From the NCBI RefSeq assembly GCF_003991155.1, contig NZ_CP031293.1: 64,000 bases of DNA; one strand, given 5' to 3'. Shown piece after piece: positions 12,233 to 50,503 of the stretch (position 1 is the stretch's first letter; each line of letters starts with the position of its first letter). The notes beneath the pieces were generated by a model. The model saw only the letters and a list, made by a program, of their open reading frames with translations. It had not been told where the DNA came from and searched no databases. The stretch comes from Escherichia coli. GTDB taxonomy: Bacteria > Pseudomonadota > Gammaproteobacteria > Enterobacterales > Enterobacteriaceae. A program made the translations under genes and the position numbers.

Positions 12233-12383
12233 AACTTTGCCTCAGGCATTAGAAATAGCGCGTTATTGTACACGGATTAATCGCACTACAAAACAGGATC
12301 ACAAACATCCTCCGCAAACAAGTATTGCAGAGTCCCTTTGTGATCGCTTTCACGGAGCATAAAAAGGGTTATCCAAAGGTCAT

Positions 12384-12462
12384 TGCACCAACATGGTGCT
12401 TAATGTTTCCATTGAAGCACTATATTGGTGCAACATTCACATCATGGTGCAGCCCTTTTGCA
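12384..12462 (+). promoter_or_regulatory. NtrC (NRI) enhancer sites upstream of glnA
   Basis: TGCACCAacatGGTGCt (12384-12400), GCACtatatTGGTGCA (12417-12433) and a third GGTGCA..TTGCAC element, matching the TGCACC-N5-GGTGCA consensus. Confidence 0.75.
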
Positions 12463-12505
12463 CGATGTTAAGCATGATAACGCCTTTTAGGGGCAATTTA
12501 AAAGT

Positions 12506-12521
12506 TGGCACAGATTTCGCT
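12506..12521 (+). promoter_or_regulatory. glnAp2 sigma-54 promoter (-24/-12)
   Basis: TGGCAC-agatt-TCGCT about 85 nt upstream of the glnA ATG; matches recalled glnAp2 sequence. Confidence 0.8.
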
Positions 12522-12604: not shown

Positions 12605-14014
12605 ATGTCCGCTGAACACGTACTGACGATGCTGAACGAGCACGAAGTGAAGTTTGTTGATTTGCGCTTCACCGATACCAAAGGTAAAGAACAGCACGTC
12701 ACTATCCCTGCTCATCAGGTGAATGCTGAATTCTTCGAAGAAGGCAAAATGTTTGACGGCTCCTCGATTGGCGGCTGGAAAGGCATTAACGAATCCGACA
12801 TGGTGCTGATGCCAGACGCATCCACCGCAGTGATTGACCCGTTCTTCGCGGATTCTACCCTGATTATCCGTTGCGACATCCTTGAACCTGGCACCCTGCA
12901 AGGCTATGACCGTGACCCGCGCTCTATTGCGAAGCGCGCCGAAGATTACCTGCGTTCCACTGGCATTGCCGACACCGTACTGTTCGGGCCAGAACCTGAA
13001 TTCTTCCTGTTCGATGACATCCGTTTCGGATCATCTATCTCCGGTTCCCACGTTGCTATCGACGATATCGAAGGCGCATGGAACTCCTCCACCCAATACG
13101 AAGGTGGTAACAAAGGTCACCGTCCGGCAGTGAAAGGCGGTTACTTCCCGGTTCCGCCGGTAGACTCTGCTCAGGATATTCGTTCTGAAATGTGTCTGGT
13201 GATGGAACAGATGGGTCTGGTGGTTGAAGCCCATCACCACGAAGTAGCGACTGCTGGTCAGAACGAAGTGGCTACCCGCTTCAATACCATGACCAAAAAA
13301 GCTGACGAAATTCAGATCTACAAATATGTTGTGCACAACGTAGCGCACCGCTTCGGTAAAACTGCGACCTTTATGCCAAAACCGATGTTCGGTGATAACG
13401 GCTCCGGTATGCACTGCCACATGTCGCTGTCTAAAAACGGCGTTAACCTGTTTGCTGGCGACAAATACGCAGGTCTGTCTGAACAGGCGCTGTACTACAT
13501 TGGCGGCGTAATCAAACACGCGAAAGCGATTAATGCCCTGGCAAACCCGACCACCAACTCTTACAAGCGTCTGGTCCCGGGCTACGAAGCACCGGTAATG
13601 CTGGCTTACTCTGCGCGTAACCGTTCTGCGTCTATCCGTATTCCGGTGGTTTCTTCTCCGAAAGCACGTCGTATCGAAGTACGTTTCCCGGACCCGGCGG
13701 CTAACCCGTACCTGTGCTTTGCTGCCCTGCTGATGGCCGGTCTTGACGGTATCAAGAACAAGATCCATCCGGGCGAAGCGATGGACAAAAACCTGTATGA
13801 CCTGCCGCCGGAAGAAGCGAAAGAGATCCCACAGGTTGCTGGTTCTCTGGAAGAAGCACTGAACGAACTGGATCTGGACCGCGAGTTCCTGAAAGCCGGT
13901 GGCGTGTTCACTGATGAAGCGATCGATGCGTACATCGCTCTGCGTCGCGAAGAAGATGACCGTGTGCGTATGACTCCGCATCCGGTAGAGTTTGAGCTGT
14001 ACTACAGCGTCTAA
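12605..14014 (+). CDS. glnA: Glutamine synthetase (type I)
   Basis: 469-aa ORF; adenylylation-site context NLYDLPPEE present. Confidence 0.97.
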
Positions 14015-14074
14015 TAGTTGAAGTTGTACTACCCGGCGCAACAACGCCGGGATTTAGTTGCCGTGGAAACTTTC

Positions 14075-14100
14075 AGCCCATCTCTGCATGGGCTTTTTTC
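14075..14100 (+). terminator. Rho-independent terminator after glnA
   Basis: Hairpin agcccatctctgcatgggct followed by TTTTTT. Confidence 0.7.
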
Positions 14101-14140
14101 TCCGTCAATTCTCTGATGCTTCGCGCTTTTTATCCGTAAA

Positions 14141-14166
14141 AAGCTATAATGCACTAAAATGGTGCA
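14141..14166 (+). promoter_or_regulatory. glnL promoter region with overlapping NtrC operator
   Basis: -10-like TATAAT at 14145-14150 immediately followed by palindrome TGCACTAAAATGGTGCA (14150-14166). Confidence 0.7.
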
Positions 14167-14187
14167 ACCTGTTCAGGAGACTGCTTT

Positions 14188-15237
14188 ATGGCAACAGGCA
14201 CGCAGCCCGATGCTGGGCAGATCCTCAACTCGCTGATTAACAGTATTTTGTTAATTGATGACAATCTGGCGATCCATTACGCCAACCCCGCCGCGCAACA
14301 ACTGCTCGCCCAAAGCTCCCGCAAATTGTTTGGTACGCCGTTACCGGAACTGTTGAGCTACTTCTCATTAAATATCGAGCTGATGCAAGAAAGTCTGGAG
14401 GCGGGGCAAGGTTTTACCGATAACGAAGTGACGCTGGTCATCGACGGGCGCTCGCATATCCTTTCTGTGACGGCCCAGCGTATGCCGGACGGCATGATCC
14501 TGCTGGAGATGGCTCCGATGGATAACCAGCGCCGCTTAAGTCAGGAACAGCTACAGCACGCCCAGCAGGTTGCTGCCCGTGATTTAGTGCGCGGCCTGGC
14601 ACATGAGATTAAAAATCCGCTTGGCGGTTTACGTGGCGCGGCGCAGCTGCTCAGCAAAGCGTTACCTGACCCATCACTACTCGAATATACCAAAGTGATT
14701 ATCGAACAGGCGGACCGGCTGCGAAATCTGGTCGACCGTCTGTTGGGGCCGCAGCTGCCCGGTACGCGCGTTACCGAAAGTATTCACAAAGTGGCTGAAC
14801 GCGTGGTAACGCTGGTGTCGATGGAACTGCCGGACAACGTGCGGTTGATTCGTGATTACGATCCCAGCCTGCCGGAACTGGCGCACGACCCGGATCAAAT
14901 TGAACAGGTCTTGCTGAATATTGTGCGCAATGCGCTACAGGCGCTGGGGCCGGAAGGCGGTGAAATCATTCTGCGTACCCGCACCGCGTTTCAACTGACC
15001 TTACACGGCGAGCGCTACCGGCTGGCGGCGCGGATTGATGTGGAAGATAACGGGCCGGGCATTCCGCCTCATTTGCAGGATACGCTGTTTTACCCGATGG
15101 TCAGCGGCCGCGAAGGTGGCACCGGGCTTGGCTTATCCATCGCTCGTAATTTGATTGATCAGCATTCAGGCAAAATTGAATTTACCAGTTGGCCAGGGCA
15201 TACCGAGTTCTCGGTTTACCTGCCTATCAGGAAATAA
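14188..15237 (+). CDS. glnL: Nitrogen regulation sensor histidine kinase NtrB (NRII)
   Basis: 349-aa ORF; H-box [11 protein letters not shown]; ATPase G-boxes. Confidence 0.95.
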
Positions 15238-19141: not shown

Positions 19142-19207
19142 AATGGTTCGTCTTTTAGCCGTTTTATTCAGTATAGATTTGCGGCGGAATCTAACAGAAA
19201 GCAAGCA

Positions 19208-19452
19208 AAGAAAAAAGGCGACAGATTACTCTGTCGCCTTTTTTCCTGACTCATAACCCTTAACGGGTCTTACAATCCTTGCAGGCCGCCAACACACCCT
19301 GTTTTTCCATTAGCCGGAACAATCCGTGTTGATTCCATTTCCGTTTAATTACGTCTCCGGACGTTTGTCTTCCTGACAATCCTCTGTCTTCGCCTCCTGG
19401 CGCTCCTGACCCTCATCCTGAGTCATTGTTCCTGTTAGCGTCCTCGCTCTAT
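19208..19452 (-). ncRNA. csrC: CsrC sRNA (CsrA-sequestering RNA)
   Basis: Minus-strand sequence ATAGAGCGAGGACGCTAACAGGAACAATGACTCAGGATGAGGG... with many GGA motifs, ending in hairpin ggcgacagagtaatctgtcgcc plus U-run; lies in the yihI-engB spacer as in K-12. Confidence 0.75.
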
Positions 19453-20480: not shown

Positions 20481-20589
20481 TAAAAAACGCCCCAGTCATT
20501 ACTGACTGGGGCGGCTAAAATATTCAGCCAAATCCGATTACGTGAAGTAAAAGGTCTGAAAGATAGAACATCTTACCTCTGTACCCTAC
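20481..20589 (-). ncRNA. spf: Spot 42 sRNA
   Basis: Reverse complement reads GTAGGGTACAGAGGTAAGATGTTCTATCTTTCAGACCTTTTACTTCACGTAATCGGATTTGGCTGAATATTTTAGCCGCCCCAGTCAGTAATGACTGGGGCGTTTTTTA (109 nt), the Spot 42 sequence with its terminator. Confidence 0.9.
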
Positions 20590-20736
20590 GCGACTAACTT
20601 TACTCTTTTTTGTTCAGTTCAGAAAGCATTTTTTGTAATTTTTTTTCAGTTGTTGCATAGGAATTTCTAATAGCCATCACAAAACGTGACAGCTTATGTT
20701 GCTTACTTACGAAAAAAGGGCATGTTCAGGCGAATC

Positions 20737-29683: not shown

Positions 29684-29803
29684 ATGCCTGGCAGTTCCCT
29701 ACTCTCGCATGGGGAGACCCCACACTACCATCGGCGCTACGGCGTTTCACTTCTGAGTTCGGCATGGGGTCAGGTGGGACCACCGCGCTACGGCCGCCAG
29801 GCA
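29684..29803 (-). rRNA. rrfA: 5S ribosomal RNA (120 nt)
   Basis: Reverse complement reads TGCCTGGCGGCCGTAGCGCGGTGGTCCCACCTGACCCCATGCCGAACTCAG...GGAACTGCCAGGCAT. Confidence 0.97.
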
Positions 29804-29896
29804 AATTCTGTTTTATTAACCCGCTTGTCGCCGGTTAATTTAATCTGTATCAGGCTGAAAATCTTCTCTCTTCCGCCAAAACACCTTCGGCGTTGT

Positions 29897-32800
<2,904 letters not shown>

Positions 32801-32982
32801 TCACAACCCGAAGATGTTTCTTTCGATTCATCATCGTGTTGCGAAAATTTGAGAGACTCACGAACAACTTTCGTTGTTCAGTGTTTCAATTTTCAGCTTG
32901 ATCCAGATTTTTAAAGAGCAAAACTTCGCAGTGAACCTTTGCAGGTACACTCTGAAGTATTTTTATTTAATCACTACAGAGA

Positions 32983-33058
32983 TGGTGGAGCTATGCGGGA
33001 TCGAACCGCAGACCTCCTGCGTGCAAAGCAGGCGCTCTCCCAGCTGAGCTATAGCCCC
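32983..33058 (-). tRNA. alaT: tRNA-Ala (UGC), spacer tRNA
   Basis: Reverse complement GGGGCTATAGCTCAGCTGGGAGAGCGCCTGCTTTGCACGCAGGAGGTCTGCGGTTCGATCCCGCATAGCTCCACCA (76 nt). Confidence 0.97.
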
Positions 33059-33100
33059 ATAACATGTAGTTAAAACCTCTTCAAATTTGCGGTGCAAATT

Positions 33101-33177
<77 letters not shown>

Positions 33178-33245
33178 GTAGAGGTTTTACTGCTCATTTT
33201 CATCAGACAATCTGTGTGAGCACTGCAAAGTACGCTTCTTTAAGG

Positions 33246-34787
<1,542 letters not shown>

Positions 34788-48260: not shown

Positions 48261-50503
<2,243 letters not shown>

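Follow-up and report, generated by a model that had tools for sequence, protein, structure and literature searches.

The window analyzed here, a 64,000-nucleotide stretch of Escherichia coli DNA, contains the gene for glutamine synthetase (glnA) and, separated from it by a spacer of 173 nt, the start of glnL, in an operon context that reads as that of E. coli glnALG. The glnA stop codon is directly followed by a 3′ untranslated region (UTR) that ends in an intrinsic terminator, and because the T run of this terminator ends at position 14099 the UTR comprises 85 nt. An earlier sequence-only reading of the window had described an 85-nt UTR with a strong intrinsic terminator after the glnA stop, as we find; it had bounded the segment at 14015 and 14100, of which the first position is correct and the second overshoots the final U by one base. 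The coordinates of all features discussed in this region are compiled in Table 1.

Table 1. Features of the glnA-glnL region in window coordinates, with the evidence from which each was defined.
Feature	Positions	Strand	Description and basis
Sigma-54-type promoter TTGGCACAGATTTCGCT	12505-12521	+	GG at 12507-12508, GC at 12519-12520; read from the sequence
glnA coding sequence	12605-14014	+	Glutamine synthetase, 469 aa, parental mRNA of the sRNA; ORF list, with glnA as the annotation in all matching E. coli genomes
RNase E-like motif AG↓UUU (RN↓WUU)	13989-13993, cut 13990/13991	+	In the last glnA codons; motif scan
glnA stop codon TAA	14012-14014		
GlnZ, O157-type / Class I (= EsrF)	14015-14099	+	85 nt; whole glnA 3′ UTR, first base downstream of the stop through to the final U of the terminator
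5′ hairpin CCCGGCG-CAACAA-CGCCGGG	14032-14051	+	7 G-C pairs, G+C-rich; folding, −15.4 kcal/mol alone
GGGAUUUAG motif (GGGATTTAG as DNA)	14049-14057		Partly in the 3′ arm of the 5′ hairpin
RNase E-like motifs GG↓AUU and GA↓UUU	14050-14055, cuts 14051-14053	+	Just 5′ of the seed; motif scan
Seed 5′-UUGCCGUGGAAA-3′	14058-14069	+	One exact match in the 64-kb window, 0.03 expected by chance
Rho-independent terminator	14075-14099	+	Stem AGCCCAT/ATGGGCT (14075-14094), loop CUCUGC, six U (TTTTTT, 14094-14099); terminator scan and folding, −10.1 kcal/mol
glnL promoter −10 box TATAAT	14145-14150	+	Perfect; read from the sequence; outside the sRNA
NtrC-type palindrome TGCACTAAAATGGTGCA	14150-14166	+	Overlaps the TATAAT box; read from the sequence
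glnL start	14188		

The elements that flank this segment correspond to those expected of the operon. The sigma-54-type promoter upstream of glnA is presumably glnAp2, as judged from what is established for the E. coli glnALG operon, and the −10 box and overlapping NtrC-type palindrome upstream of glnL make up a region (14145-14166) that we take to be the classical NtrC-repressed glnL promoter (glnLp). A sigma-70 consensus scan missed the TATAAT box of the latter because its −35 element is poor. Several other RNA genes are recognized by Rfam in the window. The ES222 sRNA (RF02755) matches over the full length of its model at 12314-12421 on the reverse strand, with 135 bits against a gathering threshold of 62; it lies in the divergent intergenic region between typA and glnA, on the typA strand, and overlaps the NtrC-site region upstream of glnA. 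The remaining above-threshold matches, also on the reverse strand, are CsrC (19199-19452), Spot 42 (20481-20599), Erse sRNA (49898-50149) and a complete rRNA operon (29686-34787) with 16S, two tRNAs, 23S and 5S, including StyR-44 in the spacer beside the 23S gene.

The sequence-only reading had proposed that the segment is the local unit of GlnZ, a small RNA (sRNA) derived from the glnA 3′ UTR, and had suggested Rfam and comparison with described GlnZ sequences as means of checking it. The former does not settle the identity, since scans with Rfam 15 yield no GlnZ match in the window, either at the gathering threshold or at E ≤ 1. The latter, together with the literature, identifies the segment as O157-type GlnZ, for which EsrF is another published name: the glnA-glnL spacers of the window and of E. 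coli O157:H7 strain ECP19-198 are identical at 173 of 173 positions, the UTR has the published length of 85 nt, and the conserved seed is present. The feature is thus an already known one. Over its first 25 kb the window is 100% identical to several E. coli chromosomes, which identifies the organism as E. coli; non-O157 strains are among these matches, and the host strain may differ from O157. A megablast search with the region 13900-14250 returned a match under annotated glnA and glnL in 5,425 of the 5,426 complete E. coli genomes, with both annotated genes flanking the match in 5,424 of them. E. coli AMSHJX01 (NZ_CP030939.1) is the sole genome in which the match starts at query position 154 (approximately 14053 in the window); in this genome the seed and terminator do not run on from the 3′ end of glnA and the 5′ half of the UTR, and an insertion or rearrangement possibly splits GlnZ from glnA.

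A substantial body of experimental work bears directly on this allele. Three types of glnA 3′ UTR have been described in E. coli, of 197 nt in K-12, 85 nt in O157 and 230 nt in O111; GlnZ was seen by northern blot in both O157 and O111, where it is induced with glutamine as the sole nitrogen source, and the O157-type GlnZ is functional once swapped into K-12 (Miyakoshi et al. 2022, PMC9731577, eLife 11:e82411). The enterohemorrhagic (EHEC) form was named Class I by Walling et al. 2022 (bioRxiv 10.1101/2022.04.01.486790), who report that it is induced by nitrogen deprivation and represses glnP, sucA and aceE in a seed-dependent manner; for glnP a compensatory mutation supports this. In strain EDL933, an RNA named EsrF was mapped by 5′ and 3′ RACE to exactly 85 nt, from the T adjoining the glnA stop to the T run of the terminator (Jia et al. 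2021, PMC8092317, mBio 12:e03605-20), and Walling 2022 and Miyakoshi 2022 subsequently showed this RNA to be the O157-type or Class I GlnZ. The segment of the window agrees with EsrF in length, 5′ end and motif: its 85 nt begin at the T that follows the glnA stop, and the GGGAUUUAG motif occupies the expected place. The existence of a discrete transcript, its induction under low nitrogen and the repression of its targets are therefore taken here from the literature on an identical sequence; our own analysis contributes the location of the segment, its anatomy, its identity to the characterized allele, its seed and its complementarity to targets.

Folded as RNA, the segment 14015-14100 reaches −28.3 kcal/mol (z = −2.3 relative to shuffled sequences) and forms two hairpins, separated by a linker that contains the seed. 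The first of these, a 5′ hairpin that the sequence-only reading did not describe, occurs in the O157 and O111 types but not in the K-12 type according to the alignment; when it is folded in isolation, positions 14028-14031 pair with 14055-14058 and lengthen its stem. The seed lies between this hairpin and the terminator and is predicted to be mostly single-stranded. In the centroid fold its 12 bases are unpaired save 14058 and 14060, with G14059 forming a bulge, and the minimum free energy fold also pairs 14069. The base at position 41 of the UTR (14055), which Miyakoshi et al. 2022 (PMC9731577) tied to the regulation of aceE, is U, the E. coli state. The terminator ends both the glnA mRNA and the sRNA, and is expected to serve as the Hfq-binding module. 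Open reading frames called mechanically over the segment, one of 41 aa on the reverse strand (14029-14154), one of 60 aa with a TTG start on the forward strand (14058-14240) and a TTG-initiated frame of 337 aa antisense to glnA, were set aside: they have no coding support, and RefSeq annotates nothing there.

Complementarity to the published targets was assessed with RNAduplex, pairing the linker (14051-14075) with the upstream region of each target and using 300 shuffled seeds as a control. The genes sucA, aceE and glnP lie outside the window, and their upstream regions were taken from O157:H7 strain PV15-279, which carries an identical GlnZ core. The predicted duplex for sucA spans positions −52 to −26 from the start codon at −22.4 kcal/mol, with 12 of 300 shuffles performing as well; that for aceE spans −105 to −90, including the published C-99, at −20.8 kcal/mol (4 of 300); and that for glnP spans −22 to −11 at −18.4 kcal/mol (27 of 300). 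All three fall at the published sites. The outcome fits the published targets but, with energies only moderately better than those of the shuffled-seed controls, would not be strong on its own.

Taken together, these lines of evidence identify the segment with high confidence as GlnZ in its short (O157-type, Class I) form, a 3′ UTR-derived, Hfq-dependent sRNA of Enterobacteriaceae that would act through the nitrogen-limitation mechanism described for it. That mechanism rests on the literature and is put forward as the most likely account. Under nitrogen limitation, NtrC and sigma-54 would turn on glnAp2 and produce the parental glnA-GlnZ transcript, which would terminate at the intrinsic terminator, with its end at 14099. 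Cleavage by RNase E near the glnA stop codon would then yield an RNA of approximately 85 nt together with a shorter species, and sucA, glnP and aceE would be repressed through pairing of the exposed seed of the Hfq-bound 3′ fragment with the 5′ region of each. The expected outcome is a lower consumption of 2-oxoglutarate and a lower uptake of glutamine at a time when glutamine synthetase is induced. Levels of GlnZ have been found to depend on NtrC (Walling et al. 2022, bioRxiv 10.1101/2022.04.01.486790). Experiments on the K-12 and Salmonella alleles established that GlnZ depends on RNase E and Hfq and has to be released from the mRNA; for the O157-type allele we infer all of this.

A scan for the RNase E motif RN↓WUU points to where such processing may occur. 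The motif in the last glnA codons is a candidate upstream processing site, which would generate a precursor of approximately 109 nt, and the pair of motifs just 5′ of the seed constitutes a candidate site for the origin of a shorter species of approximately 47-48 nt. Both full-length and processed GlnZ species have been observed in O157 (Miyakoshi et al. 2022, PMC9731577). The scan finds no motif at 14014/14015, and the published 5′ end at 14015 does not fit it, the nearest cuts being those at 13990/13991 and 14051-14053.

A different account has been given of the same RNA. According to Jia et al. 2021 (PMC8092317), the 85-nt EsrF is a primary transcript made from its own promoter within the end of glnA; NtrC represses it, high ammonium induces it, and its main action is to activate flhB by pairing through the GGGAUUUAG motif, thereby promoting EHEC motility and virulence. 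The RACE mapping, the resistance of the transcript to TEX, its unchanged abundance in a deletion of the glnA promoter and gel shifts with flhB mRNA all speak for this account, and the motif, read as GGGATTTAG in the DNA, is indeed present in the window. A transcript that is TEX-resistant and independent of the glnA promoter conflicts with an origin by pure processing. The opposite regulation, however, that is, induction by nitrogen limitation, has been reported in O157:H7 itself, with the disagreement made explicit in two later studies (PMC9731577; bioRxiv 10.1101/2022.04.01.486790). Our folds, moreover, lock three G residues of the motif into the 5′ hairpin, whose stem consists of 7 G-C pairs, and the identical allele is common to many non-EHEC E. 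coli. The sigma-70 consensus scan likewise detects no promoter-like site in 13950-14014, although the scan is a crude one that a weak promoter could escape. We consider it quite improbable that EsrF as originally modeled describes the segment. The remaining alternative, that the UTR works purely in cis, with the terminator stabilizing the glnA mRNA and attenuating read-through into glnLG and with small fragments representing decay intermediates devoid of trans function, draws on the slightly lower GlnA obtained upon deletion of the K-12 terminator (Miyakoshi et al. 2022, PMC9731577) and on a spacer whose terminator and glnL promoter region are invariant even as its body varies by large insertions, yet it is highly improbable in view of a 12-nt seed retained in three otherwise rearranged E. 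coli alleles, in Salmonella and, from the Rfam consensus, in Yersinia, of direct base-pairing proven by published compensatory mutations, and of GlnZ-target chimeras recovered on Hfq by RIL-seq, EPEC included. The cis role of the UTR is real; it is additional to the trans function of GlnZ and not an alternative to it.

The variation of the locus across E. coli places the short allele of GlnZ in context. Megablast resolves the glnA-glnL spacer into three length classes among E. coli genomes, and representative spacers were compared from K-12 MG1655, strain EC12, one short type and O157:H7. The terminator and everything 3′ of it, including the glnL promoter region, show no variation among the three spacer types in the alignment. 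To establish the distribution of alleles, a 65-nt probe (14018-14082) that takes in the 5′ hairpin and the seed and reaches into the terminator was searched against all complete E. coli genomes. The full probe was found in 2,859 of 5,426 genomes (approximately 53%), corresponding to the short O157 type; 991 of the 5,426 matched its first 33 nt only, up to the insertion point of the O111 type; and the approximately 1,575 remaining genomes, without a match, represent the K-12 type. The short form is hence the commonest allele in E. coli. Among the 3,850 genomes with a match, 3,743 carry the 65-nt core at 99% identity or more, a conservation of the segment far above chance.

Resolving the longer types called for some care. 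When the three spacer types were aligned with MAFFT the K-12 seed was put out of register, and it was local pairwise alignment that revealed the match between K-12 and the seed-plus-terminator unit of the window: the first ~45 nt of the K-12 MG1655 3′ UTR agree with window positions 14051-14100 at approximately 36 of 43 positions. On the basis of this comparison, the K-12 type resembles a duplicated seed-hairpin unit arranged around a REP element, and not the simple insertion between seed and terminator by which it has been described. Its 5′ copy consists of the seed and a diverged hairpin (GCCTGTCTCTGGCAGGC) and its 3′ copy of the terminator with a sequence resembling a decayed seed, with the REP element between the two. 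In EC12, our example of the O111 type, a 145-nt insertion lies between window positions 14051 and 14052, after the 5′ hairpin. The published description of the O111 type is of a 98-nt insertion between AGGUUCAAA repeats; those 98 nt alone fall short of the difference between the two reported lengths (230 − 85 = 145 nt).

The presence of the 5′ hairpin and its GGGAUUUAG motif in the short and O111 types, and their absence from K-12, raise the possibility that GlnZ of these types acts, in a lineage-specific way, outside the conserved seed regulon as well, for example by activating flhB, which is disputed, or by shielding its 5′ end against RNase E. We regard such an activity as rather improbable; if it did exist, the three E. 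coli alleles of GlnZ would not be functionally equivalent.

No Rfam 15 family matches the segment at gathering thresholds, and RefSeq carries no annotation under the matched allele in E. coli genomes; automated pipelines consequently miss the short allele despite its being the commonest in the species. The best match obtained at E ≤ 1 is to Yersinia sRNA 49 (RF02766, Ysr49), at 13995-14099 on the forward strand, with 34.1 bits and E = 5.8e-4; the gathering threshold of this family is 95 bits, so that the window falls below it and is not a member by the Rfam criterion. The alignment takes in approximately the last 20 nt of glnA, starting close to the RNase E-like motif there, and only the seed and the terminator align well, the middle of the model being left unaligned. 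Because in the Ysr49 consensus GCCGuGGAAACUUUU precedes a GCCCau...auGGGC terminator, matching the seed and terminator of GlnZ, Ysr49 is probably the Yersinia counterpart of this sRNA. The name Ysr49 is absent from Miyakoshi 2022 and Walling 2022, and the Y. ruckeri paper that names Ysr49 makes no mention of GlnZ. The distribution of GlnZ over Gammaproteobacteria has already been published. Ysr49 could serve as the starting point for a proper family. The only other match in the segment, to anti-hemB (20 bits, E = 0.21), was rejected as a generic terminator match.

The result for the window is a known regulator correctly placed and its allele identified, nothing more. GlnZ ties nitrogen assimilation to carbon flux, in that the mRNA from which glutamine synthetase is made also holds back 2-oxoglutarate dehydrogenase, pyruvate dehydrogenase and the import of glutamine.

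Set against the systems described to date, the segment is indistinguishable from the O157-type GlnZ, or EsrF, in sequence, in its length of 85 nt, in its position directly after the glnA stop and in having the seed beside the terminator. The K-12 type (Class III, 194-197 nt) shares with it the locus, the seed, the terminator and the downstream sequence, and targets sucA, glnP and aceE; its seed, however, directly follows the stop codon and precedes the diverged hairpin and REP element, and it lacks the 5′ hairpin found in the window. The long double-stranded REP stem of the K-12 form is a substrate of RNase III (Walling et al. 2022), and the short form has no such stem. The O111 type (230 nt) is the O157 type with an insertion, and it too has the seed adjoining the terminator. 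The same arrangement is seen in the GlnZ of Salmonella (Class II, 185 nt), which differs in its long, unrelated 5′ part and in an extra G by the seed that changes the targeting of aceE and deoD, where the window has the E. coli state. The body of GlnZ varies unusually much between strains of a single species. Beyond GlnZ, the sRNAs SdhX, CpxQ, SroC and MalH are also Hfq-associated products released from 3′ UTRs by RNase E, in which the terminator of the mRNA provides the 3′ end and Hfq module of the sRNA and regulation is coupled to the parental operon, but their sequences and regulons are unrelated to those of GlnZ.
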